Of a stretch of DNA of 64,000 nucleotides, positions 13,373-51,350 are shown in pieces (the first letter of the stretch is position 1; the number at the start of each line of letters is the position of its first letter). The position numbers were made by a program, and so were the translations under genes. Under the pieces are notes generated by a model. It was not told where the DNA came from, did not search any database, and was given only the letters and a program-made list of their open reading frames with translations. The stretch is from an uncultured Candidatus Sumerlaeota bacterium (lineage in GTDB: Bacteria > Sumerlaeota > Sumerlaeia > MVZB01 > JAJFLK01): NCBI GenBank assembly GCA_964463045.1, contig CAYXAU010000007.1:39916-103915 (forward strand), written 5' to 3'.

Positions 13373-14347
13373 TCAGGAGCCCTCGCCGCCGACGAGGGCC
13401 TCGTGGGCGAAATGCGTCGCCCGGGGCTGCAGGAGCGCTCCCAGATGAGAGGCCATGAAGTAGAGCGAGCGGAGGCCGACGTAATCGTATCCCTTCCGCC
13501 GGTCCTGGCTGTCCAGATAGATAAATCCGAAATACTGGCGGCCGGCAAGAATGGGACAGGCCACGAAGGAATGGATGGGGTATTTGCCCCGGGCGGCGAT
13601 CCGGGCGAACCGGTTGTCGTTGAGCACGTTCGGACAGAAGACGCACTTTTCAGCCCCCAGGACGACCCGCAGCACGGCCTGGGCGATCTCGATCGAGGCC
13701 TCTTCGCCCTCGGGGGACTCAAGCGCCAGCACTTTGAGCCGCTCCTTGGCCGGGTCGGCCTCCATCACGACGCCGTGATCCCCCCCCAGAATGCGCAAGG
13801 CGTGCCGGAGCGTGGCGCTGAACAGGTCGGTCGAGTCCGTCGCCGCGCCCATCTCATAAAAGGCGCGCAGAAGCTCGATGGCGTTAGGCAGCGTAAAGAA
13901 CGTCGCCCCCTCGGGGTCATGGAGCAGCCGGTGAATGACGCTCTCCATCTGCCCGGCCGGGAAAACCGTCACCGGCTCGGTCGAGAGCGCCGGCCGTTGA
14001 CCGGCCCGGCGATGAAAGAGGTACTCCCCCCGGCGGGAGAGCGCGCGTTCCAGGTCAAGCCCTTCCGGCGGATTGAAGAAAAGGATCGTTGAGCCGAGGA
14101 TGATCTCGTCGCCGTTCTGGAGGGCCTGCTCGGCCACGCGATCGCCGTTGACGAAGACGCCATTGCGACTGTTCAGATCCTTGATGATCGTCTGATCCCC
14201 CTGGCCGAAGATGATGGCGTGCGTCCGAGAGACCTCGGCGTCTTGCAGGCTCAGGGAATTGAACACGTCCCGCCCGATCGTGAGCTGCTGATCCAGGGGG
14301 ACCTCCATGTAGCTCTCGGCGTTGATGACCAGCAGTTTGTTCGCCAT
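13373..14347 (-). CDS. FHA domain protein with C-terminal GAF-like domain
   Basis: N-terminal FHA (TIGRD..NSLSLQD..VSRTHA.I......II.DLNSRNGVFVNG.RV). The C-terminal 180 aa are GAF-like. Confidence 0.7.
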   Translation of the reverse strand: MANKLLVINAESYMEVPLDQQLTIGRDVFNSLSLQDAEVSRTHAIIFGQGDQTIIKDLNSRNGVFVNGDRVAEQALQNGDEIILGSTILFFNPPEGLDLERALSRRGEYLFHRRAGQRPALSTEPVTVFPAGQMESVIHRLLHDPEGATFFTLPNAIELLRAFYEMGAATDSTDLFSATLRHALRILGGDHGVVMEADPAKERLKVLALESPEGEEASIEIAQAVLRVVLGAEKCVFCPNVLNDNRFARIAARGKYPIHSFVACPILAGRQYFGFIYLDSQDRRKGYDYVGLRSLYFMASHLGALLQPRATHFAHEALVGGEGS

Positions 14348-16800: not shown

Positions 16801-18735
16801 ATGAACCGGACGGGACGGAGGATCGGGCGGGTCGGGGCGTTGATGGCTCTTGGGTGGATCGTCGCCGCCGAAGGGATCGCTCAAAGGGGAGCGCAGGACG
16901 GCCAGTGGCCCACCTATGGCGGCGACCTGGGCAGCGCCAAGTACGCCGCGCTGGACCAGATCAACCGCGATAACGTGAAAGACCTCAAAATCGTCTGGCA
17001 ATGGGAGGCGCCGGACAACCAGGTCGCGGCCGAGGACCCCCGCAGCCGCCCCGGGGCCTTCAAGGTGACGCCGATCATGATCAAGGGCGTTCTTTATACG
17101 AGCACCTCGCTCGGCTTCGTGGCCGCGATCGACGCCGCCACGGGGCAGACGCTCTGGGTCTTCGACACCGAAAGCCGCAAGATGGGGCGGCCGACTAACC
17201 TGGGCTTCAATCATCGCGGCGTGGCTTACTGGACGGACGGCACGGAGGAACGCATTTTCATGCCTTCCAACGACGCCTTTCTCTGGGCCATCGACGCCAA
17301 GACGGGCAAGGCGGCGGCCGGCTTCGGCGACAACGGCCGCGTCGATCTGACGCAAGGGATGCGCCGGCCCGTCGAACGACGCCTCTATACGATGATCTCC
17401 CCGCCGCTAGTGATCCGCGACCGCGTCATCGTCGGCTCCTCGATCTTCGACGGCCCGACCACGCCGGAGATGCCGCCGGGCGACGTGCGCGCCTTCGACC
17501 CGCGCACCGGTCAGCTCATCTGGACGTTTCACACGGTCGCTCAGCCGGGCGAGTTCGGCAATGAAACCTGGGAGAACGGCTCGTGGGAATACACCGGCAA
17601 CACCAACGTCTGGACGATCATGAGCGGGGACGAGGAACTGGGGCTGGTTTACCTCCCCATCAGCACGCCGACCAACGACTGGTACGGCGGCCACCGCTTG
17701 GGGGATGGCCTCTTCGCCGAAAGTCTCGTCTGCGTGAAGGCCGAAACCGGCGAGCGCGTCTGGCATTACCAACTGGTGCATCATGGGCTCTGGGACTACG
17801 ACAATCCGGCGGCCCCCACGCTGGTCGACATCACCGTCGACGGACGGAAGATCAAGGCGGTCGCCCAGGTCACCAAGCAGGGCTTCTGCTACGTCTTCGA
17901 CCGCGTGACCGGCCAGCCGGTCTGGCCGATCGAGGAACGGCCCGTCCCGCAATCCAAAGTTCCGGGCGAGCGCACATCGCCGACCCAGCCGTTCCCAACC
18001 AAGCCCGCCCCCTACGAAAGCCAGGGCGTCACGCTGGATAACATCATTGACTTTACGCCGGAGCTGCGCGAAGAGGCCCTCAAACTGCTGGAGAATTATG
18101 AGTGGGGACCGCTCTTCACCCCGCCGAGCGAGAAGGGGACGATCTCCAACCCCGGCTGGGGGGGCGGCGCCAATTGGTGGGGAGCCTCCTTCGACCCCGA
18201 GTCGGGGCTCCTCTATGTCCCGTCGGTCACGTCGCCGATCGTCATTCAGCTCGGCAAGCCCGACCCGGCCCGATCGAGCTTTCAATTCGTGCGCGTCGGC
18301 GGCATGGGGATGGGCCCTCGGGGACCTCAGGGTTTGCCTCTCCTTAAGCCCCCCTACGGTCGGATCACCGCCATTGACCTGAACACGGGCGACCACGCCT
18401 GGATGGTGCCGCATGGGGATGGACCGCGGGCCCGGATCAGCGAAGTCGTGGGCCGGGACGTGGGGCCGGTCGGCGGGGGGGGGACGGGCCCGGTGCTGAC
18501 TAAAACGCTCCTCTTCATCGGCCAGGGGGGGGCGACCAGCCGCGGCCGGGGCGAAGAGGCGACCTCCGTCCTTCGGGCTTACGACAAGGCCACGGGCGAG
18601 GTCATTCATGCCGTGTCCGTGCCGGCGCCGCCCGCCGGGACGCCGATGACGTACATGTGGCAGGGCAAGCAGTACATCGCGCTGGCGGTCGGCGGAGGGA
18701 CCAACGCCGGTCTGATCGGCCTGGCCTTGCCCTGA
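16801..18735 (+). CDS. PQQ-dependent dehydrogenase (quinoprotein alcohol/glucose dehydrogenase family), secreted
   Basis: Signal peptide, then an 8-bladed PQQ beta-propeller with repeated W-motifs ([13 protein letters not shown]...LWVFDT...LIWTFHT...[14 protein letters not shown]). RBS GAGAGGA lies upstream. Confidence 0.85.
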
Positions 18736-18760: not shown

Positions 18761-20503
18761 TTGATTGGCATCCAGGGGGACGGGAGGAGGCGAAGCCTCA
18801 TGCGCTGGAGAGGGTGGTTTTGGGCAGCGGCATTGATCGCGGGGGCGGCGTTCGCCGTTCGGGCGGGGGCGCAACTTCCCGCCGACGCGGTCATGCTCGA
18901 CAAGGTCAAAATCCCGGAAAAGATCAAATCCGAGGACCTCTGTCCGGTCTATCTGGAGCCCTCGGCTCCCGACGGACCGACCTGGGAATACCAGGGGGTT
19001 GGCTATCGCGGAGCGAAGCCCGACGCCAGGGAGAAGTTCTTCCAGGACCCGGACGGTTACGCCGCCAAGCACGCCGAAAAGCGCTACATCGACAATTTCG
19101 TCCAGGCCATGAGCATCATCTGGTGCCCGGTGACCGATGAGGTCAGCCCGGGGGGCTTGGCCGCGTGGACGGCCCTCGGGATCAAGTGGGAAGCCTGCTG
19201 TGAGTTCTGCGAAAGCCAGGTGACGGATCAGGACTTCGAGGGCGCGCTGGACCGGCTCATCGAACGCGCCCGGATCAGCTACCGGCTCACGGGGGGCATA
19301 TACACCGAAGGGGCCTCATCGCCCGTCGAAGGGGCCGTCAAGGGGATCGCCAAGATCGACGGGGAGGGCGCCGCCCCGGCCGCCGCGACCGAGCCGGACG
19401 AACCCGCCTATCTCGCGGGCCGGACGCTCAAGCCGACCTACGCCGAAGGGATCGGGCTGATCTTCGAGAACCGTTGCGTCGAATGTCACCGACCGGGTGG
19501 CCTGGCCCCCATGAGTTTCGCCTCCCTCGGCGAAATCAAAAAATGGACGAAGTCGCTCAAGGAAACCATCGTCAATCGGGCGATGCCCCCCTGGCCGGCC
19601 GAGCCCGGCATCGGACGATTCGCCAACGACCGGAGGCTCACGCGGCAGGAGATCGATCTGCTGGTCCAGTGGATTGAGGCGGGCTATCCCCCGGGGGAGG
19701 GCCAGTATGCCCCCAGCCGGACCGCTGCCGAAGCCTGGACGATCGGCGAGCCTGATCACGTCTTCCAGCTTCCGGAAGCGACAGTCGGCGAGAACGTCGT
19801 CGGCGAGGTTCAGACGTTCAGCCTGGAAACGGCGTGGGATGAGGACCGATGGGTCGTGGCCGCCGAGGTCAGGCTGGGCGACGAATTCACGATCCTGGGG
19901 GTGGAGGCCGGGCCGCTGGGGGCGTTTTATCCGGGGGCGCGCGTCGTGCGCCATCTTCCGGGGACGGGTCGGCTGCTCAAAGCCGGGGAGAAAGTTCCCG
20001 TCCACGTGCATTACCTGAAGGAAGCCGGTTATTCGATCACCGACCCGGGGACCAAGATCGCCGTCCGCTTCGCTGAGGACGCCGCGGCGATCCGCTCGCC
20101 GATTCTGAGCCACCGCATGACTCCGGGAGAGTTCGCCATCCCCGCCGGGGCCGCTGATTTCCAGATCACCGCCCGCTTCGAGTTGCCTCAGGCCAGCCGG
20201 ATCGTCTCGCTGACGCCCATCCTGATGCAACGCGGCAAAAGCGTTCTTTTCCGCGCGATCCTGCCCGACGGCAAGCACCAGCCTCTTCTCTCGATCCCCC
20301 ATTGGGATCCGAACTGGAAACTGCACTATCAGTTGGCCGAGCCACCGGTCCTGCCGGAGGGAGCGGTCATCGAGATGACGGCCGTTTACGACAATTCCAA
20401 GCTCAACGTCCGCAACCCCAACCCCGACGTGGCCGTTTCCTCAGACCCATCAGGGGAATCGGCCGAGGGGTGGATCGACTACGTGCTTGAGCCGGCGGAC
20501 TGA
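18761..20503 (+). CDS. Secreted mono-haem c-type cytochrome domain protein with Cys-rich N-terminal region and beta-rich C-terminal domain
   Basis: Signal peptide. One CxxCH haem motif (CVECH). N-terminal cysteine cluster (CPVY...WCPV...WEACCEFCES). The C-terminal ~300 aa are not assigned. Confidence 0.6.
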   Translation: MIGIQGDGRRRSLMRWRGWFWAAALIAGAAFAVRAGAQLPADAVMLDKVKIPEKIKSEDLCPVYLEPSAPDGPTWEYQGVGYRGAKPDAREKFFQDPDGYAAKHAEKRYIDNFVQAMSIIWCPVTDEVSPGGLAAWTALGIKWEACCEFCESQVTDQDFEGALDRLIERARISYRLTGGIYTEGASSPVEGAVKGIAKIDGEGAAPAAATEPDEPAYLAGRTLKPTYAEGIGLIFENRCVECHRPGGLAPMSFASLGEIKKWTKSLKETIVNRAMPPWPAEPGIGRFANDRRLTRQEIDLLVQWIEAGYPPGEGQYAPSRTAAEAWTIGEPDHVFQLPEATVGENVVGEVQTFSLETAWDEDRWVVAAEVRLGDEFTILGVEAGPLGAFYPGARVVRHLPGTGRLLKAGEKVPVHVHYLKEAGYSITDPGTKIAVRFAEDAAAIRSPILSHRMTPGEFAIPAGAADFQITARFELPQASRIVSLTPILMQRGKSVLFRAILPDGKHQPLLSIPHWDPNWKLHYQLAEPPVLPEGAVIEMTAVYDNSKLNVRNPNPDVAVSSDPSGESAEGWIDYVLEPAD

Positions 20504-25919: not shown

Positions 25920-26039
25920 GGTTGCCCCGCTTCGCCGGCGGGAATAGGCTTGCGACCGGCCGGTGGCGGCCCCAGAATCGGCCGGAACGAGCCCCCCTAT
26001 CCCCAACCGCCCCCCCAGGGCGAAGGAGGCGAAGCGTCA

Positions 26040-28213
26040 TGCGATCCGGCGCGAGGAGCTTTCGATGGATGCTGATCGGCGCGGCGCTGCCGCTGGCGTT
26101 GGACGCCGCGGCGGCGTCGGCTCCGAAACCGGAATGGGCTGACCTGGCCGCACAGGTCGAAATCCGGCGAACGGCCTACGGCGTCCCGCACATCAAGGCC
26201 GAGAACGAGCGCGCCCTCGGTTTCGGTTTCGGCTACTGCCAGGCCGAGGATCATCTGCTGAGCATCCAGCGGCTCGTTCTGACGGCGCGGGGCGAGCTGG
26301 CCCGGACCTTTGGCCGGGCCGCCGACGTGGAGTCCGATTTCTACGTCCGGCAATTCCGCGTCCGAGAGCGAGCCGTCGCGACCTACCACAAGCTTGATCC
26401 CGATTTCCGCGATCTCATCGAAGGCTTCGCCGAAGGGATGAACGCCTATATCCACGCCCATCGCGAGGGGCTGCCGGCGTGGGTCCGGCCGGTGACGGCG
26501 CATGACGTGGCCGCCCACGGCATGACGGGCGTCATGCGCTTCGCCTTTAATCGCAACCGGATCATCGAACGCTTCCTGCGCGCGCAGCGGGGGGAGGCCG
26601 AATCCGAGGAGACCGCGGCGCTCCAGGCCGAGGAGGCCGTCGTCGGCTCCAACCTCTGGGCCTTCGGCCCCAGCCGCACCCGCTCGCGCAAGGCGATTCT
26701 GATGGGCAACCCGCACCAGCCGTGGTCCGAGGTGGCGACCTACTACGAGGCCCATTTGACCGTCCCAGGCGTGATCGATTTCTACGGCTCGACGTTCGTC
26801 GGCCGGCCCGTCCTGACCACCGGCTTTAACGCTCACCTGGGCTGGACGCACACGGTCAATTACCCCGATCTCGAGGAAATCTATGAGCTCAAGCTGGACC
26901 CGACGCGGCCGGAACATTTCCTCTTTGACGGGGACGCGCTGCCGATCCAACGCGACGACGTCACGATCGAGGTCAAGACCGACAAGGGGCTCGCGCCGCA
27001 AACGCGCGCCTTCTTTCACACGGCCCTCGGACCCGTTATTCACCGGACCGACGACCGGATTTACGTTCTCCGTTCGGCCAGCTACGAGGAGTTCCGGTTC
27101 TATCAGCAATGGTTCCGGATGAGCCAGGCGCGCAATTTCGCCGAGTTTCAGGCGGCGCTCGCCCTTGGCGCCGTCCCGATGTTCAACACCGGCTACGCCG
27201 ACCGCGAAGGGAACATTTATTACCTGTGGAACGGGACGGTCCCCGTGATCCCGCACGAGAATCAGGACGCCCGCGCCGTCCCCGCCGCCCGTTCGGCCGA
27301 TATCTGGACCCATTTCCTGCCGCTCAAGGAGTTGCCGCAGTTGCTCAACCCCAAGGGAGGCTACGTGCAGAACTCCAATGATCCGCCCTACTTCACGAAC
27401 TTGAACGAGCCGCTCGACATTCGATCCTTCCCCCCTTATTTCCCGCCGCATCGGCTGAGCCTCCGCACCCAACACAGCCTCGAGCTGATTCACAACCGCA
27501 AGCGCTTCAGCCTGGAGGACGTGGTCGATCTCAAGTTCAGCCCCCGGATGCTGCTGGCCGACCGGGTGAAGGACGATCTGATCGCGGCGCTCAAGCTCAA
27601 GGCGGCCGAGGCGGAGACTCTGCGCGCCCGCGAGATGCTCGAACGCTGGAACAACACGACCGAAATGGACAGCCGAGGGAGCGTGCTCTTTGAAATCTGG
27701 TGGACCCGCTATCAGACCGAGTGCCGCCGGGCCGGCATCGAGCCCTACGCCGTCCCGTGGAGTCCGGAGGCCCCGATCACGACGCCGCGCGGCCTGGCCG
27801 ACGCCGAGCGGGCGGCGCAAGCCTTCGCCTGGGCGCTGGGTGAAACTTCCCGCCTGTATGGCGCGTGGGACGCGACATGGGGGGAGGTCCATCGTCTGCG
27901 CAAGGGGAAGGTGGAGGCGCCGGTGAGCGGCGGCGGGGGGGCGATCGGCTCCTTTCGCGTTCTCGATTTCCGGCGGGACGAGACCGACGGCAAGCTCGTC
28001 GTCCGCGGCGGAGATAGCTGGATTTTCGCCGTCGAGTTCGGCGATACGCCGCGGGCCTATACCGTCGTCGGCTATAGCGAGAGCGAAGTCCCCGACTCGC
28101 CCCATTACGATGATCAAGGGGAGCTGTTCGCGGCCAACAAAATGAAGCGCGCCGCCTTCACCGAGGCCGAAATCGAAGCCCAGCTTCTGCGCCGCTATCG
28201 GCCGAGCTTCTAA
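26040..28213 (+). CDS. Penicillin-amidase family Ntn-hydrolase (AHL/aculeacin acylase-like), secreted
   Basis: Signal peptide, alpha-subunit, then beta-subunit beginning with the Ser nucleophile in GSNLWAFGP. Length is 724 aa. The ORF-track entry 25193..28213 is an artefactual upstream extension overlapping cdsA. Confidence 0.8.
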
Positions 28214-28305
28214 GGGCGGACAGGGAAAAAACGACCTCGAAGACGCCACGACACGGAGCGGAACTGAGTCCAACCTTGTCTTCGCGTCTTCTGGGTTCTC
28301 TCTTG

Positions 28306-31300
28306 TTAATCGGCGTTGACGGCTCCGTTCACGTCGGGCCGGTCGCGACCGAGCCCCCCGCGCTTCCAGACGGCGAAGATGGCCGGATAAACGGTCAGTT
28401 CGAGTAAGAACGAGGTGAGCAGGCCGCCGACCATCGGGGCCGCGATGCGCTTCATGACGTCGGCTCCCGTCCCGGTGCTCCACATCACCGGCAGAAGACC
28501 GATAAAACTCGTCAGCACCGTCATGAGCTTCGGGCGGATCCGGCCGGCGGCCCCCTCGACGATGGCCGCTTCCAGATCGGCGAACGTCCGCAGGGTCCCC
28601 TCGGCCGCGCGGCGCCGATGAGCCAGCGTCAGATAGAGGAGCATGACGACGCCCGTCTCGGCGTCCAGACCGGCCAGGGCGATCAGCCCCACCCAGACGG
28701 CCACGCTCAGATTGTAATTCAGCAGATACAAAAGCCAGACGGCGCCGATGAGCGAGAAGGGAACGGCGAGCAGAACGATGAACGTCTCGACGACCGATCG
28801 CGTGTTGAGGTAGAGGAGAAAGAAAACGACTAGCAGGGTGGCCGGGACGACGATTTGGAGCCGGGCCTTGGCGCGCTCGAAGTATTTGAACTGGCCGGAC
28901 CACTCCAGGCGCGTCCCCGGCGGCAGCGCGACGCGCTCGGTCACGACCCGGCGGGCCACGTCCACATAGTCGGCGATACCCATCCTCACGACGTCGACGA
29001 AGACGTACCCCAGAAGCTGGCCGTCCTCGCTGCCGATCATCGGCGGCCCGACGCGGAACTCCATCCGCGCCAGTTGCGCCAGCGGCACTTGCGCCCCCGA
29101 AGGCGAGGCGACCAGCACGCGCTTGAGCGCCTCCGGGTCCTCGCGGAAATCGCGCGCGTAGCGGACGTTGATCGGGAAACGCTCGCGTCCTTCAATCGTT
29201 TCGCTGACGTTCTCCCCGCCGATGGCGGCCAGGATGACGTCGTTCACGTCGCCGACGGTGAGGCCGTGGCGGGCCGCTTCCCGCCGGTCCACGTCGAAAT
29301 CCAGGTAATAGCCGCCGGTGACCCTTTCGGCGAAGGCGCTGCGCGTGAAAGGCCGCGTCCTCGCGTCTTCGAGCAAGGCCCGCTCGACGCCGACGGCCGT
29401 CGCCTCGATCGATTCCAGGTCCGGGCCGAACACTTTGACCCCCAGCGGGCTCCGGATGCCCGTGGCGAGCATCTCCGTCCGCGTTTGGATCGGCATCCAC
29501 CAGATGTTCGGCATGCCGGGATAGCGCAATTCCTCGTCCATTTCCTGAATGATGCTGTCCCAGGTCAGGCCGGGCCGCCAGGCCTCCGGGGGCTTGAGCG
29601 TGACGACGGTCTCGACCATGGACATCGGGGCGGGGTCCGTGGAGGTCTCGGCGCGGCCGATCTTCCCGAAGACCGACTGCACCTCCGGGAAGCGCCGCAG
29701 CCGCTCATCCATGGATTGCAGGATGGCCGTCGCTTCGGTGGCGGAGACGCCCGGCAGGGCCGTCGGCATGTAGAGGATGGAACCCTCGTTAAGCGGCGGC
29801 ATGAACTCGTTGCCCAGCCGCATGAAGGCCGGGACGGTCAACCCCATCGCCGTGAGGGAGAGCGCGATCACGAGCCACCGATGGCGGACGACGAGACGGA
29901 CGACCGGCGAATAAAGCCAGATCAGGAGACGGTTGAGCGGGTTGCGCTCCTCGCGGCGGACGCGGCCGCGGATCATCAGGGCGGCCAGCGCCGGGGTCAA
30001 CGTGACGGCGAGCCCCGCCGCGAACGCCATCGAGTAAGTCTTGGTAAAGGCAAGCGGCCGGAACAGCCGGCCCTCGGTTCCCTCCAGCGTGAAAACCGGC
30101 AGGAAGGCGATCGTGATGACCAGGAGGGAGAAGAAGATCGTGGGGCCGACCTCCTGCATGGCCCCGATCACGACCTCCCGGCGCGGTCCGGCGGCCGGGG
30201 CGGCCGTCTCCAAGCGCTTATGGATGTTCTCGACCATGATGATCGAGGCGTCCACCATCGCCCCGATCGCGACGGCGATGCCCGCCAGGGACATGATGTT
30301 GGCCGTCAGCCGCTGCTCGACCATCGGGATGAAGGCCAGGAGGACGGCGATCGGCAGGGCGACGATCGGGATGAGCGCCGAGCGGGCGTGCATCAGAAAA
30401 ACGATGATCACCAGGCTGACGACGAGCATTTCTTCCAGCAGCGCGCGCCGGAGCGTGTGGATCGACCGCCGAATCAGCTCGGAGCGGTCGTAGACAATCA
30501 CCACCTCCACGCCCTCCGGCATCGAGGCGCGCGCCTCTTCCAGCCGCGCCTTCACGCGCTCGATCACGCGCAGCGCGTTCTCCCCGTAGCGCATGACGAC
30601 GATCCCGCCGACGGTTTCCCCTTCGCCGTTCAGCTCGGCGATGCCCCGCCGCGTCTCGGGGCCGATCTGCACCGTGGCCACGTCCTTCAGATAGACGGGC
30701 ACGCCCCCTTCGCCGGTCATCAAGGGGATCAGTTCCAGATCCTCCCGGGACCGGATATAGCCGCGGCCGCGCACCATCTGCTCGTGTCCCGCCAGCTCCA
30801 GAACGTGCCCCCCGACGTCCTGATTCGACCGGCGGATGGCGTGGATCACCTCTTGCAACGGAATGTCCAAGGCCAGGAGCTTGTTCGGGTCGACGGTCAC
30901 CTGATACTGCTTGACGAATCCGCCGACGGAGGCGACCTCGGCCACCCCCTCGACGCTTTCGAGCCAGTAGCGCAGGCGCCAATCCTGAAGGGCCCGCAGC
31001 TCGGCCAGGTCGTGGCGGCCCGTCTTGTCCACCAGCGCGTATTGGAAGACCCACCCGACGCCGGTGGCGTCCGGCCCGAGGGTGGGCGTCACGCCTTCGG
31101 GCAGCCGGCCGGCCAGGGCGCTCAGGTATTCCAAGACGCGGCTCCGCGCCCAGTAAACGTCCGTTCCGTCCTCGAAGATGACGTAAATGAAGGAAAGGCC
31201 GAACGCCGATTGCCCTCGGACGTAACTGACGCGCGGGGCCGCCAACAGCGACGAGGCGATCGGATAGGTGATCTGGTCCTCGACGAGGTCCGGGCTCCGG

Positions 31301-31500
31301 CCGGGCCACGCGGTGAAGATGATGACTTGCGTGTCGGAGAGATCGGGAATGGCGTCCAACGCCACGCGGCCGACCGACAGCCAGCCCCAGAGCACGAGCC
31401 CGCCGACGGTAAAGAGCGTCAGAAAGGGATTCCGGGCGCAATGGCCGATCAGTTTCTGAATCGGCCCGAGCGGAGGTTCCCAGGTTGAAGACATCCTCAC
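28306..31500 (-). CDS. cusA: Heavy-metal efflux RND permease (CusA/CzcA family)
   Basis: 1064 aa and 12 TM helices. HME-RND family features include a methionine cluster region and conserved charged residues in TM4. It is last in a three-gene minus-strand operon with the adaptor and OMF. Confidence 0.9.
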   Translation of the reverse strand: MRMSSTWEPPLGPIQKLIGHCARNPFLTLFTVGGLVLWGWLSVGRVALDAIPDLSDTQVIIFTAWPGRSPDLVEDQITYPIASSLLAAPRVSYVRGQSAFGLSFIYVIFEDGTDVYWARSRVLEYLSALAGRLPEGVTPTLGPDATGVGWVFQYALVDKTGRHDLAELRALQDWRLRYWLESVEGVAEVASVGGFVKQYQVTVDPNKLLALDIPLQEVIHAIRRSNQDVGGHVLELAGHEQMVRGRGYIRSREDLELIPLMTGEGGVPVYLKDVATVQIGPETRRGIAELNGEGETVGGIVVMRYGENALRVIERVKARLEEARASMPEGVEVVIVYDRSELIRRSIHTLRRALLEEMLVVSLVIIVFLMHARSALIPIVALPIAVLLAFIPMVEQRLTANIMSLAGIAVAIGAMVDASIIMVENIHKRLETAAPAAGPRREVVIGAMQEVGPTIFFSLLVITIAFLPVFTLEGTEGRLFRPLAFTKTYSMAFAAGLAVTLTPALAALMIRGRVRREERNPLNRLLIWLYSPVVRLVVRHRWLVIALSLTAMGLTVPAFMRLGNEFMPPLNEGSILYMPTALPGVSATEATAILQSMDERLRRFPEVQSVFGKIGRAETSTDPAPMSMVETVVTLKPPEAWRPGLTWDSIIQEMDEELRYPGMPNIWWMPIQTRTEMLATGIRSPLGVKVFGPDLESIEATAVGVERALLEDARTRPFTRSAFAERVTGGYYLDFDVDRREAARHGLTVGDVNDVILAAIGGENVSETIEGRERFPINVRYARDFREDPEALKRVLVASPSGAQVPLAQLARMEFRVGPPMIGSEDGQLLGYVFVDVVRMGIADYVDVARRVVTERVALPPGTRLEWSGQFKYFERAKARLQIVVPATLLVVFFLLYLNTRSVVETFIVLLAVPFSLIGAVWLLYLLNYNLSVAVWVGLIALAGLDAETGVVMLLYLTLAHRRRAAEGTLRTFADLEAAIVEGAAGRIRPKLMTVLTSFIGLLPVMWSTGTGADVMKRIAAPMVGGLLTSFLLELTVYPAIFAVWKRGGLGRDRPDVNGAVNAD

Positions 31501-33125
31501 CAGGCCTCCACCGCCGCCTTGAGCTTGCTCTCGGCTGCGATCAGGAAGTTGGCCGACGTGACGACGACCTCTCCCTCCTCCAGCCCTTCGAGCGCCTCGA
31601 CGCGGTCCGCCGTCCGGACACCGACGCGGATGGGGCGGGGTTTGAGCCGGCCGCCGCCCAGATCGACGAAGACGAGCCGGGTCTGGCCGGCGTAAACGAC
31701 GGCGCTTTCCGGCACGACCAGGCGCTCCCCGAGGGGCCGGGCCAGCTCCACATTGGCGTACATGGCCGGCTTAAGCGCCCCATCGGGGTTGGGGGTGATC
31801 AGCCGTACCCGTCCCGTGCGCGTCGTGGGGTCCAGATACGGGTAGATATAGGCGACTTCGCCCGCGAAGCGACGGTCGGGTAGATAGGAAAGCGTGATCT
31901 GCGCCCCCAGCCCGGGCTTGACGAGCGGCACCTCGAACTCATAAACGTCGGCTTCGACCCAGACGACGGACAGATCGGCCAACCGATAAAGCAACCGGCC
32001 CGGCTCAACGGCGCTCCCCTGGACGATATTCTTCTCGATGACCACGCCGCCGACGGGCGCGCGGATCGGGACGTATTCCCAGGCCCGACCGGCGCGCGCA
32101 ATCTCCTCCAGCACGTCTTCGCCGATGTCCCACAGGCGCAGGCGGCGGCGCGAGGCCTCGACCAGCCGGGATCCGCGGGCTGCGTTCTCCCTCGCCTCGC
32201 CCAGCGCGCGCAGATATTCCTCTTGGGCGGCCAGAAGCTCTGGACTATAGATCGTGAAAAGCGTGGAGCCGGCCTCGACGCGCTTGCCCGTGTAATCGGC
32301 CTCGACTGCGCCGATCCAACCGCCGAACTTGAGCGTCACATCGGCTAGCCGGGTCTCGTCGTAGGCGACGCGGCCCACGGCGCGGATCACGGCGGTGAGC
32401 TCTTCGCGTCGCGCGGAGGCGGTTTTGACGCCAATCAATTGGCGGCGGCCTTCCTCGACGACGATCGCCCCGACGCGCAGCTCTTCGCGCGTGACGGGGG
32501 TCAGGTCCATGCGGCAGATGGGGCACGTGCCGGGCTCGGCGGATTTGACTGAGGGATGCATCGAACACGTGTAGTAAGCGACGCCGCCCTCGGCCCCCTC
32601 CCCGCCGGAACCCGTGGCCGAGATGACCGTCAGCCCCTTGAGCCGGGGAGCGAGCGTCATATCCAGGTCGGCGTGACCCTGCTCGGGGTGCTCGACGCGC
32701 CCCCTGAGATTCCAGGTTCCCCGCATGGAAAGCTCGAAGGCGGCCCGGTATCGGCCGGGGGGGGTCTCCTCAATCTCGGCGGCCGATCGCATCTCCGGCA
32801 TGCTCCCCATGGCCGCCATCACGGCCTGGAATTCGACCCGTACGCCGGCCAGAGGTGACCCCGCCCCATCACGCACGGTCAGGACGAGCGCGTTCTCGCC
32901 CACGACCGGAGGGTCGGGCGCCAAGGCGGCCTCGATTACGAACGGGCCGGCCGGGATGGTCTGGGCCTCGCCGATGGCCTCAGAGGCTGAACGGCCGCCG
33001 AGGCCGGCCCATTCCAGAGGCAGGACCGAGAACCAGTCGGCAAGCTGCGACCGATAGACGGCCCCAGCGACGAGCAACGCGACGATCACCAGCAACGAGG
33101 GGATCGATCCGATCAGTCGTTTCAT
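31497..33125 (-). CDS. cusB: RND efflux periplasmic adaptor (CusB-like) with heavy-metal-binding CxxC domain and an extra N-terminal beta-rich domain
   Basis: YYTCSMHPSVKSAEPGTCPICRMDL is the HMBD found in CusB/Cu-ATPase N-termini. The membrane-fusion-protein barrel/lipoyl regions follow. About 150 aa upstream of the HMBD are an additional domain. Confidence 0.8.
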   Translation of the reverse strand: MKRLIGSIPSLLVIVALLVAGAVYRSQLADWFSVLPLEWAGLGGRSASEAIGEAQTIPAGPFVIEAALAPDPPVVGENALVLTVRDGAGSPLAGVRVEFQAVMAAMGSMPEMRSAAEIEETPPGRYRAAFELSMRGTWNLRGRVEHPEQGHADLDMTLAPRLKGLTVISATGSGGEGAEGGVAYYTCSMHPSVKSAEPGTCPICRMDLTPVTREELRVGAIVVEEGRRQLIGVKTASARREELTAVIRAVGRVAYDETRLADVTLKFGGWIGAVEADYTGKRVEAGSTLFTIYSPELLAAQEEYLRALGEARENAARGSRLVEASRRRLRLWDIGEDVLEEIARAGRAWEYVPIRAPVGGVVIEKNIVQGSAVEPGRLLYRLADLSVVWVEADVYEFEVPLVKPGLGAQITLSYLPDRRFAGEVAYIYPYLDPTTRTGRVRLITPNPDGALKPAMYANVELARPLGERLVVPESAVVYAGQTRLVFVDLGGGRLKPRPIRVGVRTADRVEALEGLEEGEVVVTSANFLIAAESKLKAAVEAW

Positions 33126-33127
33126 GG

Positions 33128-34570
33128 TTAATCTCCTTCCTGAGACGGACGCGCCTCAATGGGCCCGCCGACGGCCCGCTCAAGGTCCGCCTCGCGTTGG
33201 AAATACTCGGCCAGGGCCTGACGTCGATTCAGTTCAAGGGTGAGAAGCTTGCGCTCGGCCTCGATCAGCGTGGCCCGGTCGCTCCGGCCCGCCTCATAGT
33301 TGGATCGCGCCGTGGCCAGGGCCTCGCGCGCCGGGGGCAGAAATTGAGCGTCATACAGGTGAATCACGTGGCGGCTCTCCTGGAGCTGATCGAACGCCAG
33401 TTGCACCTCCGCCTCCAGCTCCCGGCGCATCTGCTCAAGTTCGGCGGTCAGGCGTTCGAGCCGGGCGTGAGCCTCTTCCTCAGCGGCGCGCCGGCGCCGC
33501 CGCTGGATCGGAATGTTGAAGCCGAGCCCAATCATGGGCCGCAGCTCCCGCACGTCCCAGAAAGCGTCATAAGCGGCCATCAACGTGAGATCAGGAAAGT
33601 ATTCCTTGCGCGCGAGCGCGACGTCAGCCTCTGCGGCCCGGAGCCGCGCTTCCAGCGCGCTCAACTCCGGGCGGCGGCTCAGGGCCACGGCCCGCAGCGC
33701 TTCGGCCGCCGGAGATTCGGCCTCCGGGATCTCCACCAAGGGCGGTGGGGGCGGGAACGCAAGCTCCGGCGATTGATTCAGCAGGGCGCTCAGGCGGGCC
33801 TCCGCATTTTTGCGGAGGCGATCCAGCGACAGGCTCCGGTGGCGAACATGGGCCAGCTCGATCTCGGCCTCCAAAGCGTCTTCCTTCGAGCCCAGCCCGG
33901 TCTCATAGCGGCTCCGGGCATTGGCCAGCAGCTCCTGCGCCAGCGCCGATTCCCTCTGATTGATGGCCTCGGCTTCGTGGACGAACGCCAACTCGAAATA
34001 GGCGAGTTTAGTCTCGTGGATGAGCTTCTGGCGGGCGGTCTCCACGTCCTCTCCCGCCGCTTCAGCTTCCTCCAGGGCCGAGCGCCCGCGCAGCCGCAGC
34101 TTCCCCGGCCAGGGCACCCGTTGGGAAAGGTCCAGCCGATAGGCCACGTCCAATCGTTCCCCCATTTCCGTCCGTGGCCGATCCAACGTCTTCGGCCCGA
34201 CCATGCCGGAGATCATGGGGTCCTCCAAAGAAATCACCTGCGGATAACGGGCCACCGCCTCGCGCCAGGCCTGACGCATGGCTTCGAGCGATCCGTTGCG
34301 CGCCAGGACCGTCTCGATCAGCCCGTCGAGGCGAAGAGCCGACCCGGCCAGGGCCGGCTCGCTCTGCCCGGGCGAGGGGCTGGACCCGAGCGGCCGGGTC
34401 TCAGCCCACGTGGCCGAACCCGGCTCCTCCCAGGCACGGGCTCGCAGGGTCTCGTAACGTCCATCCGGCCGCGCGCAACCGGTGGCCATCAATAAACCGG
34501 CTAAAACCCAAGGAACTTGTTGTCCGCGTTTGGCGTTCCGCATCTCGCCCTTCCTCATCCTTCGTTGCAA
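33128..34570 (-). CDS. cusC: Outer-membrane efflux lipoprotein, TolC/NodT family (CusC-like)
   Basis: Lipobox (LMATGCA) and two OEP repeats with coiled-coil periodicity. It is located upstream of the adaptor and RND pump. Confidence 0.8.
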   Translation of the reverse strand: MQRRMRKGEMRNAKRGQQVPWVLAGLLMATGCARPDGRYETLRARAWEEPGSATWAETRPLGSSPSPGQSEPALAGSALRLDGLIETVLARNGSLEAMRQAWREAVARYPQVISLEDPMISGMVGPKTLDRPRTEMGERLDVAYRLDLSQRVPWPGKLRLRGRSALEEAEAAGEDVETARQKLIHETKLAYFELAFVHEAEAINQRESALAQELLANARSRYETGLGSKEDALEAEIELAHVRHRSLSLDRLRKNAEARLSALLNQSPELAFPPPPPLVEIPEAESPAAEALRAVALSRRPELSALEARLRAAEADVALARKEYFPDLTLMAAYDAFWDVRELRPMIGLGFNIPIQRRRRRAAEEEAHARLERLTAELEQMRRELEAEVQLAFDQLQESRHVIHLYDAQFLPPAREALATARSNYEAGRSDRATLIEAERKLLTLELNRRQALAEYFQREADLERAVGGPIEARPSQEGD

Positions 34571-34778
34571 CGACGTGGCGCCCTCAATCCGCTGAAGCGA
34601 TCGGGCTCGGCGACGCGGCGCCGACGCCCGAGGGCATCGCCGCCGACGGCCTGGCTCATCGGCAGCCCCGCCGCCGGAGAGAACTCGTCCCTGCTACCGG
34701 GAATCGGCCAAGCCAGGCCCCGCGCGCGAGCGAGGTCTCCCCTCAGGCGCGGCCGCGCAGATACCGTTTGTTACGGTT

Positions 34779-35252
34779 TCAGATCAGAAGGGCGCGATGA
34801 AGAAGAAAGCGAGGAGGCGATGGGTCACGAACAGAGTGGTGAAAGCCAATCACGGAGGGCAGCGGCGTCGCGTGGATCATCGTCGCGTGATAACCCAACC
34901 CCAGAATCACCCCCGATTTGCCGACTTTGACCTTGCCCGGATCCGCCGCGGCTAGCGTCGTGGGATTCGGGCCGGGCCGGGCGGGGGCGCCTTTGGCCGA
35001 GCAATCGCAACGCAACTCCGTTAGAGGCTGGGGGTGACAGGGGGCGTCGGCGTCCTTCCGGGCGCGTTGTCCGCCGCAACAATCAGCGCCGGCCCGGGCG
35101 ACCGCCTGACAATCAGCCGGACGAGGATCGCACGGCCCCAGCACGGCAGCCCAGGCCGAGGCGTTCAGGGCGACAGCGAGAAGGCTCGCCAGAGCCACCC
35201 AGCCGGCCGGGCGACCGCTCCACGTGAATTCGGAGGTGAGGCGCCTCATCAA
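34779..35252 (-). CDS. Hypothetical small secreted Cys/His-containing protein upstream of the cus operon
   Basis: Predicted signal peptide (WVALASLLAVALNASAWAA). Cys cluster (CDP..ADC...ADCCG...CHP...CDC). His-rich C-terminal patch (HATMIHATP...GFHHSV). No homology is recognised. The coding status is uncertain in a GC-rich 880-bp intergenic region. Confidence 0.3.
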   Translation of the reverse strand: MMRRLTSEFTWSGRPAGWVALASLLAVALNASAWAAVLGPCDPRPADCQAVARAGADCCGGQRARKDADAPCHPQPLTELRCDCSAKGAPARPGPNPTTLAAADPGKVKVGKSGVILGLGYHATMIHATPLPSVIGFHHSVRDPSPPRFLLHRALLI

Positions 35253-35448
35253 CCGGAGAGTTTAACCCTGACGCCGCCGAGCCCGCCAGCGGAATCTTCG
35301 CCCTCGACGGGTCCGGCGACCGGCGGGCGAGGCGGGCCATTCCCTTATGGAAGCGGGGATTTCCAATTCGATAGGATGGACCCTGGGGCGGGCGTGTTCA
35401 TTCTCCGGAAGCCGGACGGGGCCGCAGCGGAGACTCAAATCAGGCGAA

Positions 35449-36297
35449 ATGTTGGCCAAACGGATCATCCCTTGCCTCGATGTCAAAGACGGCCGGGTCG
35501 TCAAGGGCGTCCGCTTCGTCGATCTGATCGACGCGGGCGATCCCGTGGAAGCAGCGGCCGCCTATGACGCCGCCGGGGCCGATGAGCTCGTCTTCCTCGA
35601 CATCACCGCCTCCAGCGACGGCCGAGAGATCATGGCCGACGTCGTCCGCCGCACCGCCGATCGCGTCTTCATGCCGACGACCGTCGGGGGAGGGCTCCGC
35701 ACCGTCGAGGACGTTAACGCCATGTTACGGGCCGGGGCCGACAAGGTCTCGCTCAACACGGCGGCCGTCCAACGACCGGCGTTGATCGGCGAGGCCGCGC
35801 GCCGGTTCGGCTCGCAGTGCATCGTCGTCGCCATCGACGCCCGGCGGCGGGACGCCGCCGACCCGACCCGCGGCTGGGAGGTGTTCACGCACGGAGGACG
35901 CACGCCGACGGGGCTCTCGGCGCTCGAATGGGCCCGAGAGGCCGAGCGGCTGGGCGCCGGCGAAGTCCTCCTGACCAGCATGGATTGCGACGGCACACAG
36001 GCGGGCTATGACCTCGAACTGACGGCCGCCGTGGCCGACGCCGTCTCCATCCCCGTTATCGCCTCCGGCGGCGTCGGGAATCTGGAGCATCTCTACGAGG
36101 GGCTGACCCGCGGAAAGGCCGACGCCGTGCTGGCGGCTTCGATCTTTCACTTCGGGCAATTCACCATCGTCGAGGCCAAACGCTACCTGGCCCGCCGGGG
36201 AGTGTGCGTGCGTCCGGTCCGGCGGCCAAGGACGCGCCGTCTCACGGACGGACCCGGCGGCGCGGCCCTGGACCGCCCCCGAGGCCGCGCGGCTTGA
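35449..36297 (+). CDS. hisF: Imidazole glycerol phosphate synthase cyclase subunit
   Basis: [22 protein letters not shown]......GDPVE.A..Y...[10 protein letters not shown]. Basic ~30 aa C-terminal tail. No other his genes are adjacent. Confidence 0.9.
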
Positions 36298-48332: not shown

Positions 48333-51300
48333 TCACTTGAGCGTGGCCAGGAAGGCCACCAGATCGGCCAGCTCCTGGACGTTGATCGCCTCGGTCAGCC
48401 CCGTGGGCATCAGGGAGACGGCGCTTTTGCGCCGTTCCAGAACCTCTTCGGATTTAAGCTTGATCATCGCTCCCGTCGCCTCGACGATCTCCACCTCCTC
48501 TTCGCTCTGGCGGCGCAGATAGCCGCTCAGATAGCCCTGCCCGCGGGCTCGAAAGACCCAGACTTCGTATTCGGGGGCGATCGCGGCGCTGGGGTTGACG
48601 ATCGAGTCGAAAAGGCCGTCGAGGCCGAGCTTGGCCCCGATGCGCGTTAACTCCGGCCCAATCTCCCCTCCGTCGCCGTCGATTCGGTGGCATCGGGCGC
48701 ACTGCGCCCCTTCAGACCGGAAGAAGACCTCGCGCCCTCGAACCGGATCGCCCGCCAGATCGACGAAGGCGGCCTTCTCCGGCAGGGCGGCCCCCTCGCC
48801 GGTTCGGGGCCGCGGCACAAGCTGCTCGGCCATGGTTCGGATTTCCTCGTGGGGGCTCCGGTAGAGCGCCGGCATCACGTCAAACAAAATACTGGGGCGC
48901 ATCTCATTCTCTTCGATCATCGACAGCAGGAGGAGCGCTCCCGGACGGGAGGCGGCCAGCAGATGGGCCGCTTCGATCTGAATCTCCCGATCGTTGTATT
49001 GATCCAACATGACCCGCCGCAAGGCGTGCTGCCCGGCTTCCCCCCGCAGGCGGCCCAGGGCTTCCAGCGCGACGCGCGACAGGGCCGGCGGACGCTCGCG
49101 GACGGTCGCCTCCAGAGCCTCGATCAGCGCCGAACTCGCCGTGGGGTCGAGCCCCGGAGCGGCCACGAGCGTCCCGGCGGATTCCAGGGCTTCGCGCCGG
49201 ACCGAAAGATCGCTCGCCGGATCGCGAGCCACTTCCATCAGTGTCGCTGCGAAAGCGACGCGGCGGGTTTCCCGGATAAACCCGATCGCGCCGGAGCGCA
49301 GAGACTCGGTCTCGAACGCGGCCCGAAGCGCCCGCTCCAACTTGGGATCGTCCAGCGCCGCCCCCCACGGTCGCCCCCGATCCCGCGCTAATTCGGCCAA
49401 GGCGGCGGTCGTCAGCTCTTCGGGGGCGGGCCCAGCCAGAACGCCGATCAACGCCCCCGCGGAAGTTTCTGAAGGGACGGCCCCCAACACGCGAATCGCC
49501 GTGCGGCGCTCCTCAGTCGGTCGATCCGAACTGGCCAGAATCTCCCGCGCCCAGGCGAGGGCGGCCGGGGGATGAAGTTCGAAGGCCAGGCCGGCCGTAC
49601 GGGCGTCCCACCGGCGACCCCACCGGTCGGCCAGTTGGGCGAAGGCTTCGGCGGCACGTCCCTTGAGAGCGATACCGGCCGCCAGACGATAAAACGGATC
49701 CTGGCCATCCCATTGAGCGGTCAACTCAAGCGTCGCCCGTTTCCCCCGCGCTTCGGAGGAGCCGGCCAACGCCAACAGGAGCTGACGCCGAGGGCGCGGA
49801 TCGGCGTCTTCCAGAAGCTTCAGCGCCCGTTCAACCCCTTCGGGACCGGACGGCGTGAGGAGCCGCACGGCGAGCGTTCGCAGCCGAGCGTCGGGGTCGC
49901 CAAGCATCGCGGCCGCCGCCCGTTCCCGCATGGAGGGCCGCCGCCAGGCCAACCATGCGGCCCGGGCGCGCATCAAAGGGTCCGCCGCCGCCAGCAACTT
50001 CTCCAGCCGCGCATCCACTTCGGGATCGGCGAGGACGGCGAGGGCCTCAGCCCCCTGATGGTGGGCGGCGGCGTTCGGCGACCGGAAAGCGCGGAAAGCT
50101 CCCTCGATCGAGGTCGGGTCCAGGGCCAGCGAACGGTAAGGCGCCCCCGGCGGGGCAAGGCGGTAAATCCGCCCGCGCGTGAAGTCGCCGATATCATGGC
50201 CGCCGACGCCGGGATCGTACCAATCGGCCACCAGCACGGACCCATCCGGGGCCACCGCTACGTCGGTGGGGCGGAACCAGGTATCTTCCCGGGCCGCCAG
50301 GAGCACTTCGGGCTCGACGTGATAGGAAGCCCCCTCCGGCGAGAGATGATAAGCCCGGAGGAGGCGCGGCCCGGCGTCAGCGTGGAGCAACGCCCCCCGA
50401 ATTCGTTCGGGCAAGAGGCTGCCCCAGTAGAACGCCATGCCGGTCGGCGAGCCGAAGCCCGTCCTTAGGATTTTCGGGATCACCCCCGGCCGATCCTCGT
50501 TCCAGTGGACCTCGTCGCGTCGGCGATCGCCCTCCCGGCGCGGCCAGTAGCCGTAGTCACCCCCTTCCAGAACATGGAGCAGCCGGGTCTGCTCGTTGCC
50601 GTCGTCGTCGTTGTCGGAGATGAAGACTTCGCCGAAGGGATCGACGGCGGGCTCATAGGGATTGCGGAAGTTCCAGGCCAACAGGTCCAGACGCCGCCCA
50701 TCCAGATCGGTCCTCAGTACGCTTCCCGCTGGAAAAGGGGCGTTGCGGCCCACCCACGCCCGCCGGCCCTCCCCGTCGGTCACGTCGAGGCCCTGATCGC
50801 CATTGCTCATGTAGAGGAGGCCATCGGGCCCTATCATGACCCCATGGAGGCCGTGATCGTTGTCGATGCCGCCGAAGCCGGTCAGGATGACGGTGCGCCG
50901 ATCGGCCCGCCCGTCCCCGTCGGTGTCTTCCAGATAGAAAAGGTCGGGCGACTGACAGACGTAAACCCGCGCGCCGACGACGGCGATGCCGAGCGGGGCC
51001 TGAAGCGACCGATCCTGATAGTAGGTCCAGGCCCGGTCGCAGCGGCCGTCACCGTCGGTGTCTTCCAGAACCCGAATGCGATCCCCATCGGGGTGAGGGG
51101 TTGGATTCTTCCAGATTCGATAGTTGGCCGCCTCAGCGACCCAGACCCGGCCTCGCGGGTCCACGTCGATCGAGGTCGGGTTCACCAGATCGGGCTCGGC
51201 GGCGAAGAGCGTCACGCCCAGGCCGGGGGCGACGTCAAAATCCTCCACGGCCGCTGACGGGGCGCGCTGGGCCCGGCCGGGCCGGGACCCGGCGGTCAGA

Positions 51301-51350
51301 CAACCGATCAGTCCGCCAAGGAGGACGAAGGCGCACGACGCAGGTTTCAT
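48333..51350 (-). CDS. PVC-type haem-binding protein: membrane-bound-dehydrogenase-like beta-propeller + HEAT repeats + C-terminal cytochrome c
   Basis: N-terminal FDVAPGLGVTLFAAEPDLVNPTSIDVDPRGRVWV is the Pirellula/Verrucomicrobium dehydrogenase-domain start. The central part has HEAT-like repeats. The C-terminus has CARCH with SLMP motif, typical of the Planctomycete-type CxxCH domain. Lipoprotein-like signal. Confidence 0.8.
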   Translation of the reverse strand: MKPASCAFVLLGGLIGCLTAGSRPGRAQRAPSAAVEDFDVAPGLGVTLFAAEPDLVNPTSIDVDPRGRVWVAEAANYRIWKNPTPHPDGDRIRVLEDTDGDGRCDRAWTYYQDRSLQAPLGIAVVGARVYVCQSPDLFYLEDTDGDGRADRRTVILTGFGGIDNDHGLHGVMIGPDGLLYMSNGDQGLDVTDGEGRRAWVGRNAPFPAGSVLRTDLDGRRLDLLAWNFRNPYEPAVDPFGEVFISDNDDDGNEQTRLLHVLEGGDYGYWPRREGDRRRDEVHWNEDRPGVIPKILRTGFGSPTGMAFYWGSLLPERIRGALLHADAGPRLLRAYHLSPEGASYHVEPEVLLAAREDTWFRPTDVAVAPDGSVLVADWYDPGVGGHDIGDFTRGRIYRLAPPGAPYRSLALDPTSIEGAFRAFRSPNAAAHHQGAEALAVLADPEVDARLEKLLAAADPLMRARAAWLAWRRPSMRERAAAAMLGDPDARLRTLAVRLLTPSGPEGVERALKLLEDADPRPRRQLLLALAGSSEARGKRATLELTAQWDGQDPFYRLAAGIALKGRAAEAFAQLADRWGRRWDARTAGLAFELHPPAALAWAREILASSDRPTEERRTAIRVLGAVPSETSAGALIGVLAGPAPEELTTAALAELARDRGRPWGAALDDPKLERALRAAFETESLRSGAIGFIRETRRVAFAATLMEVARDPASDLSVRREALESAGTLVAAPGLDPTASSALIEALEATVRERPPALSRVALEALGRLRGEAGQHALRRVMLDQYNDREIQIEAAHLLAASRPGALLLLSMIEENEMRPSILFDVMPALYRSPHEEIRTMAEQLVPRPRTGEGAALPEKAAFVDLAGDPVRGREVFFRSEGAQCARCHRIDGDGGEIGPELTRIGAKLGLDGLFDSIVNPSAAIAPEYEVWVFRARGQGYLSGYLRRQSEEEVEIVEATGAMIKLKSEEVLERRKSAVSLMPTGLTEAINVQELADLVAFLATLK

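Follow-up and report, generated by a model that had tools for sequence, protein, structure and literature searches.

The 64,000-nucleotide window analysed here, the whole stretch read from contig CAYXAU010000007.1 (assembly GCA_964463045.1) of an uncultured Candidatus Sumerlaeota bacterium, carries a tripartite Cu(I)/Ag(I) efflux operon of three genes, set between housekeeping genes. The explanation that best fits the evidence taken together, and that we hold with good confidence, is that this is a copper and silver efflux operon whose periplasmic adaptor contains a fused CrdA/YtkA-like domain and a heavy-metal-binding domain (HMBD) that would act as a relay, and that a 157-codon open reading frame (ORF) upstream of the operon is not a gene.

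The operon consists of three co-oriented ORFs on the minus strand, which encode an outer-membrane factor (OMF), the adaptor and a resistance–nodulation–division (RND) pump. GC content at their first, second and third codon positions (GC1, GC2 and GC3) is about 0.70, 0.47 and 0.85, the GC3 bias of real genes, in a window of about 67% GC.

33128..34543, minus strand: OMF (CusC/CrdB role), 471 amino acids (aa) when read from the ATG at 34543, or 480 aa for the longest ORF, which begins with the TTG at 34570.
31497..33125, minus strand: periplasmic adaptor, 542 aa, made up of an anchor, the CrdA/YtkA-like domain, the HMBD and a CusB-type fusion core.
28306..31494, minus strand: CusA-type heavy-metal RND pump, 1062 aa if translation begins with the ATG at 31494, or 1064 aa if it begins with the alternative GTG at 31500.

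A preliminary description of this DNA, made from the letters alone, had proposed a CusCBA-type metal efflux operon with junctions of 4 and 2 nt, and both points are borne out: by the three genes, their family profiles and a far better score with CusA than with ZneA, and by the junctions themselves. The OMF stop codon TAA is followed by ‘CC’ and then by the adaptor ATG, a 2-nt spacer, with AAGGAG 7 nt upstream of that ATG. The adaptor stop codon TGA either has a 4-nt overlap with the GTG of the pump gene or leads, after ‘GG’, to the ATG at 31494, again a 2-nt spacer. GGAGG is better spaced for this ATG than for the GTG, and the ATG is also the start picked by public gene callers. For the OMF, public callers begin at 34543 or 34558, and an AGGAAGG motif precedes 34543. 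Downstream of the operon lies a penicillin amidase gene in convergent orientation. At 99.9% identity, the window matches the Joint Genome Institute (JGI) metagenome contigs Ga0212128_10000021 and Ga0114945_10000423, and one Logan contig.

The pump carries the evidence for the metal. It scores 1099.4 bits against TIGR00914 (CusA/CzcA; cut-off, 701) and 764 bits against the Pfam family ACR_tran, and reaches 1097 bits with Escherichia coli CusA versus 514 bits with the zinc pump ZneA. Counted by hand on a phmmer alignment with 3T51_A, the chain numbering of which runs 7 above native, all three residues of the Cu(I)/Ag(I) triad M573/M623/M672 (E. coli CusA numbering) stand opposite Met. The same is true of M391/M403/M410 in transmembrane helix 4 (TM4), which reads AIGAMVDASIIMVEN here and AVGAMVDAAIVMIEN in E. 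coli CusA. Divalent-cation RND pumps have a DFG...DGA motif in place of the CusA-type TM4 sequence. Because the score with CusA is well above that with ZneA, and because the Met residues of the triad and TM4 are kept, we conclude from these comparisons that the probable substrate is monovalent copper or silver. The OMF matches the Pfam family OEP in two repeats (160.6 bits) and falls under the NCBIfam TolC and NodT cut-offs; read by eye, its N terminus (...VLAGLLMATGC) resembles a lipoprotein signal with a lipobox.

The adaptor is a fusion protein in which an anchor, a CrdA/YtkA-like immunoglobulin (Ig)-type sandwich with a five-Met cluster, an HMBD and the usual fusion core follow one another.

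33024..33104, minus strand: N-terminal helices (residues 8–34), predicted by AlphaFold2 (AF2), with the hydrophobic segment SLLVIVALLVAGAV; probable signal-anchor.
32604..32963, minus strand: CrdA/YtkA-like beta-sandwich domain (residues 55–174), from Pfam PF13115 and AF2.
32724..32819, minus strand: Met cluster, with M103, M106, M109 and M112 in the loop VMAAMGSMPEM and M134 in LSM, from alignment to 9LL2.
32493..32576, minus strand: HMBD (residues 184–211), C187-S-M189-H190 ... C201-P-I-C204-R-M206, from PF19335.
31506..32429, minus strand: membrane-fusion core (residues 233–540), from HlyD_D23, the NCBIfam CusB/CzcB profiles and a CusB alignment that extends to residue 540.

Pfam assigns YtkA-like PF13115 to residues 65–140, PF19335 to residues 184–211 and HlyD_D23 to residues 243–457 (251.5 bits). 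The protein passes TIGR01730 (112.7 bits; cut-off, 94.9), and its best match in the PDB is E. coli CusB (E = 5e-36). An AF2 model of residues 1–232, built on an alignment of 53 sequences with a mean predicted local distance difference test score (pLDDT) of 86.8, shows helices at residues 8–23 and 25–34, a beta-sandwich at 55–174 and the HMBD knuckle at 182–212. Residues 8–34 are a probable signal-anchor, which would tether the protein to the inner membrane with the rest of it in the periplasm.

The beta-rich domain that the preliminary description had noticed ahead of the HMBD is real, with AF2 strands across residues 55–174. It had been called a domain of unknown function, a label that does not hold. 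Given its Pfam YtkA-like match above the cut-off (51.3 bits against 25.9; E = 1.9e-13; residues 65–140), the extra region is a catalogued domain, PF13115, with the fold of CrdA. The sandwich is modelled at a pLDDT of 93–98 (residues 51–170), and a Foldseek search with the model puts Helicobacter pylori CrdA clearly first (E = 1e-8; TM-score, 0.86–0.90, for the apo structure 9LL2 and the silver-ion structure 9LL4). Sequence search alone finds CrdA at E = 3.9e-7, and H. pylori CrdA itself scores 92.2 bits on PF13115. CrdA is a secreted copper-resistance protein of the CrdAB–CzcBA copper RND pump, encoded by HP1326–1329 (PMC12319023), and its proposed Cu(I) cluster is Met69/72/75/78/99 (PMC9182242). 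These residues are M54, M57, M60, M63 and M84 of the 9LL2 chain, which align one to one with M103, M106, M109, M112 and M134 of the adaptor. PDB entry 9LL4 is described as CrdA with silver ions; PF13115 thus has a solved silver-bound structure. From this correspondence, the CrdA-like domain is inferred to bind Cu(I)/Ag(I) through the five-Met cluster.

Directly behind this domain, the CxxC heavy-metal-binding domain named in the preliminary description is confirmed by a match to PF19335 (41.3 bits; cut-off, 23.6), with the motif YYTCSMHPSVKSAEPGTCPICRMDL at adaptor residues 184–208. The 53-sequence alignment shows no variation at C187, M189, H190, C201, C204 or M206. A phmmer alignment sets M49, M64 and M66 of E. 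coli CusB, the Cu(I) acceptor site for CusF (PMC4446572), opposite M189, C204 and M206 of the adaptor, with one Met replaced by Cys. The segment also matches the N-terminal metal-binding domain (MBD) of Legionella pneumophila CopA (LpCopA; 8OVL, E = 7.9e-6), for which nuclear magnetic resonance shows Ag+ bound by M44/C59/M61 and a likeness to the SilB N-terminal domain has been noted (PMC11970713). Together, the alignments of the CrdA-like Met cluster and of the HMBD Met/Cys/Met ligands point to a succession of two soft-metal sites before the fusion core.

This combination is widespread. PF13115 occurs in 109 of the 120 best adaptor homologues (all at E <=1e-143) and PF19335 in almost all of them, so the YtkA–HMBD–CusB layout is ordinary in the databases. 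Where homologues are named, the annotation is that of a Cu(I)/Ag(I) or RND adaptor subunit, as in Alteromonas macleodii, and genome matches include Microbulbifer, Kofleriaceae and Thermoanaerobaculia. The suggestion that the extra domain is a second metal-capture module therefore survives in part: homology to YtkA and CrdA and the retained Met cluster favour it, but the module is not new, as the fusion is the commonest layout among the relatives. The best adaptor homologue is 53–60% identical, the next-best among 5.8e9 proteins being at about 54%, and the best metagenome relative of the OMF reaches 45%. Loosely, the best partial matches lead to metagenome-assembled genomes of Acidobacteriota (Thermoanaerobaculia/Vicinamibacteria) and Myxococcota.

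The adaptor homologues vary at their N termini. About half of the best ones are 640–750 aa long, with an HMBD that starts near residue 300 rather than 186, and some show extra FixH or Big-type Pfam matches. The position of the HMBD leaves room for a second N-terminal domain in the long homologues, and their sequences suggest that they may carry two tandem N-terminal Ig-like domains.

The domain identities, the match in fold, the conserved ligand residues and the layout of the operon are shown by the analysis; that the adaptor binds metal, in which order the metal moves and that the domains face the periplasm we infer. On this basis a relay from capture to HMBD to CusA is the most likely mechanism. 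The anchor would fix the adaptor to the inner membrane, and periplasmic Cu(I)/Ag(I) would be caught by the Met cluster of the tethered CrdA-like domain. From there the metal may pass to the Met-Cys-Met tri-sulfur site of the HMBD, and then to the Met triad of the CusA-type pump and out through the OMF at the expense of the proton gradient. The tethered domain would thus stand in for the soluble CusF of E. coli or the secreted CrdA of H. pylori.

The preliminary description had looked elsewhere for a metallochaperone, to the space between the OMF gene and the divergent hisF gene, which starts at 35449. Its estimate of about 880 bp for this gap was close: the gap comes to 878 bp if the longest OMF ORF is taken, and to 905 bp if the gene begins at 34543, its likely start.

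34544..35448, no strand assigned: intergenic region that separates the divergent OMF and hisF genes, the presumed home of both promoters.
34779..35252, minus strand: 157-codon ORF, judged a chance ORF and not a gene.

The ORF is present as described, but the properties ascribed to it fade on inspection. It had been taken to hold clustered Cys and a His-rich patch. Its 7 Cys and 6 His are set against about 4 of each estimated from base composition for a random translation at 67% GC, so there is no clear enrichment; it is rich in Ala, Leu, Pro, Gly and Arg, which is typical of translated GC-rich non-coding DNA. A complete ORF of at least 157 aa arises in 53% of 2000 random sequences matched to the gap in length and dinucleotide content, the mean longest being 164 aa. 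In a codon-usage log-odds score trained on 33 genes of the window, the ORF obtains 0.02 bits per codon, against 0.32–0.74 for the real genes (leave-one-out) and at most 0.18 for 37 spurious overlapping ORFs. Its GC content by codon position (0.70/0.61/0.72) shows neither the GC3 peak nor the GC2 trough of real genes. No Shine–Dalgarno sequence lies at a usable spacing from the TTG at 35252, the ATG at 35249 or the TTG at 35015, whereas all three pump genes have one.

Searches for relatives agree. A word-indexed search of 5.8e9 proteins found no homologue, and an exhaustive HMMER scan of 1.84e9 representatives returned a sole match, the 78-aa call of the ORF itself. There is no Pfam or NCBIfam match, with Pfam blank even at E <=1, and tblastn against 104 related cus-type loci, which bears on whether the ORF is conserved upstream of cus operons, gave nothing below E = 0.2. 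IMG annotates the last 78 codons and GEM 156 codons; no version was recorded from NCBI, ENA or Logan, which do hold the adaptor. Three near-identical contigs from other samples show no single-nucleotide polymorphisms in the gap, where about 0.6 were expected, so that this comparison is uninformative. Elsewhere in the window, stop-free ORFs of 968 aa (25997..28903, minus strand) and 877 aa (28855..31488, plus strand) overlap the penicillin amidase and cusA genes in antisense or out of frame. Their existence means that ORF length says little at this GC content; neither length nor Cys/His content alone carries weight at 67% GC. The ORF of the gap has no homologues or families, its codon usage is like that of non-coding DNA, it lacks a good ribosome-binding site and its length is at chance level: it is most likely a chance stop-free frame in GC-rich DNA, and the CusF-like metallochaperone or sensor role proposed for it is not supported. 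For the CusF/CrdA role, the domain within the adaptor is the more plausible candidate.

It could still be argued that the ORF, or its 78-aa C-terminal part, is a lineage-specific secreted Cys/His protein that serves the pump as chaperone or sensor. It is a complete ORF, the 905-bp gap that adjoins the OMF gene on the upstream side is otherwise empty, and crdA takes this place in the H. pylori order crdA-crdB-czcB-czcA (PMC12319023). By eye, its N terminus looks like a signal peptide, with a hydrophobic stretch ending in AWA; two pipelines called it, and its orphan status counts for less against a lineage-specific gene in an organism that has no close sampled relative. However, IMG and GEM disagree on its start, and its only match among the representatives is its own call, with no family assigned. 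Its codon score lies below those of all 33 real genes and inside the spurious range, and more than half of the random sequences yield an ORF of this length. It is absent from the 104 related loci and lacks a usable counterpart of the AAGGAG, GGAGG and AGGAAGG motifs of the pump genes. We therefore regard a real gene here as very unlikely.

The adaptor and pump invite other readings as well, and several observations weigh against ours. The Met cluster is present in only about half of the adaptor homologues, each of its residues being kept in 58–70 of 118. The only YtkA domains studied by experiment are those of Bacillus subtilis (PMC12362106), and there CtaK (YtkA) and YcnJ's C-terminal YtkA domain act in assembly of the CuA centre (PMC13344008); because CtaK works in this assembly and not in efflux, the function of PF13115 is not uniform. 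The adaptor reaches 138.7 bits against the NCBIfam CusB model NF007303 (cut-off, 390), and the OMF 15.5 bits against the CusC model NF007347 (cut-off, 598). The YtkA-like domain might not feed metal to the pump at all: it could sense copper and thereby gate or activate the adaptor, serve as a spacer or a module for interactions, or, like CtaK, donate copper to cuproenzymes. Such a role would suit the part of CtaK and YcnJ in CuA assembly, the homologous LpCopA HMBD, which has been proposed as a regulatory rather than a delivery site (PMC11970713), and the homologues without the cluster, which show that the domain can persist without it. Yet the closest solved relative of the domain is CrdA of an RND efflux operon, not CtaK; the domain is fused to an efflux adaptor directly ahead of the equivalent of the CusB acceptor site; and the operon has no separate CusF or CrdA gene. 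On balance we think a non-feeding role unlikely. Even less probable is that the pump exports divalent cations (Zn/Co/Cd, of Czc/Zne type) and that the Cys/His HMBD is a structural zinc knuckle. TIGR00914 does take in both CusA and CzcA, TIGR00999 (CzcB/NccB) and ZneB align with the adaptor too, and the fold of the LpCopA MBD is like that of zinc-binding domains with C/C/C/H ligands (PMC11970713). Against this, the RND protein scores twice as high with CusA as with ZneA, it keeps the Cu(I) Met triad and a TM4 (AIGAMVDASIIMVEN) that matches that of CusA (AVGAMVDAAIVMIEN), and an all-Met cluster of CrdA type favours soft monovalent ions.

A long divergent promoter region is the best description of the gap that separates the OMF gene from hisF; the scans used here detect no element in it. 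An Rfam scan of 34300..35700 at E <=1 gave two sub-threshold chance matches only; a scan of the gap for sigma-70 promoter and terminator consensus sequences found none; and direct and inverted repeats are limited to short weak pairs, with no operator-like palindrome. Neither leader is unusually structured (RNA folding z-scores of -0.85 for the OMF leader and +0.30 for that of hisF), and Pfam at E <=1 on all seven gap-overlapping ORFs yields nothing meaningful. Two kinds of gene remnant were considered and rejected. For a decayed gene shared with related operons, a six-frame translation of the gap compared with the 104 related loci and the rest of the window was negative; for a decayed upstream crdA, tblastn of the CrdA-like domain of the adaptor and of H. 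pylori CrdA reached no better than E = 0.19 in the gap.

No metal regulator was found by Pfam among the 20 flanking ORFs that passed a coding filter within about 15 kb, and no CusRS-type regulator among the called genes within 6 kb. The statement that no CusRS/CueR-type regulator is nearby, which leaves regulation unexplained, thus stands for the ORFs covered. The flanking ORFs tested are housekeeping and metabolic genes, among them rpsB, tsf, frr, uppS, cdsA, a PQQ dehydrogenase, hisF, a glycosyltransferase, a HAD hydrolase, an MBL-NUDIX protein, YceD, MreB, an MFS transporter and a sulfatase. The only signalling-type protein among the ORFs tested is a 324-aa FHA and GAF protein (13373..14347, minus strand), which has no metal link. 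Distal control of the operon is possible by analogy with the CrdRS system of H. pylori (reference list of PMC12319023).

The locus can be compared with several characterized systems. With E. coli CusCFBA it shares a CusA-type pump with the Met triad, an adaptor of probable CusB type, an OMF and tight translational coupling, as well as the N-terminal adaptor site, M49/M64/M66 there and M189/C204/M206 here. The E. coli operon has cusF and adjacent cusRS, whereas here there are three genes only, with no separate cusF and no adjacent cusRS among the 20 flanking ORFs of the surrounding 15 kb or so. Relative to E. coli CusB, the adaptor adds Cys and His to Met to make a full HMBD, preceded by a CrdA-like domain of about 120 aa, and this adaptor and OMF stay under the NCBIfam CusB and CusC cut-offs. 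The H. pylori order crdB-czcB-czcA is that of the OMF, adaptor and pump genes here; crdA, however, is there a gene for a separate secreted protein upstream of the OMF gene, whereas here the CrdA homologue is fused into the adaptor, and the distal CrdRS two-component system of H. pylori contrasts with the lack of an identified regulator here.

Cupriavidus metallidurans SilB offers a precedent for the fusion, with a chaperone domain joined to a heavy-metal efflux RND adaptor that also has an N-terminal tri-sulfur site (PMC4446572, PMC11970713). Its chaperone domain is C-terminal with the OB-like fold of CusF, whereas the domain here is N-terminal with the Ig-like fold of YtkA and CrdA. CtaK and the YtkA domain of YcnJ in B. 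subtilis share PF13115 and are extracytoplasmic, membrane-tethered and linked to copper (PMC13344008), but they serve copper supply to cytochrome oxidase rather than efflux and, unlike the domain here, are not part of an RND adaptor. The L. pneumophila CopA MBD (8OVL) has the same C-x-M-H ... C-P-x-C-x-M knuckle, with Ag+ bound there through Met/Cys/Met (PMC11970713); it is cytosolic, sits on a P-type ATPase and has been proposed as a sensor, in contrast to the predicted periplasmic HMBD of this adaptor.

Three further ORFs of the window were recorded. A 580-aa ORF (18761..20503, plus strand), directly downstream of a PQQ-dependent dehydrogenase gene (16801..18735), has a good coding signature (GC3, 0.82) and no Pfam match at E <=1e-5. 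A 1005-aa protein (48333..51350, minus strand) contains DUF7133 and HEAT repeats together with a C-terminal cytochrome c domain. A 160-aa ORF (54733..55215, plus strand) matches only positions 202–345 of the 347 in the glycine reductase selenoprotein B profile; a split selenoprotein gene was rejected there, as upstream in-frame translation gives stops with no continuation through an in-frame TGA, and the ORF appears to encode a stand-alone short protein.

The apparent novelty of the locus resolves into a catalogued domain and a chance ORF, and its importance is in that sense modest. YtkA/CrdA-like fusions to CusB-type adaptors are nevertheless abundant in environmental bacteria, yet no such fusion has apparently been studied, and we found no open-access literature that links CrdA or CrdA-like domains to CusB-type adaptors. 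The alignment to the CrdA structure names specific Met residues of the adaptor as targets for mutation. We consider it an even bet, judging from homology, that the adaptor is a self-contained three-station Cu(I)/Ag(I) relay that works without soluble CusF or CrdA and represents a major variant of the Cus type; it would be a major variant because the layout dominates the relatives across several phyla. If this is so, a tethered relay would account for the many Cus-type operons that function with no cusF gene.

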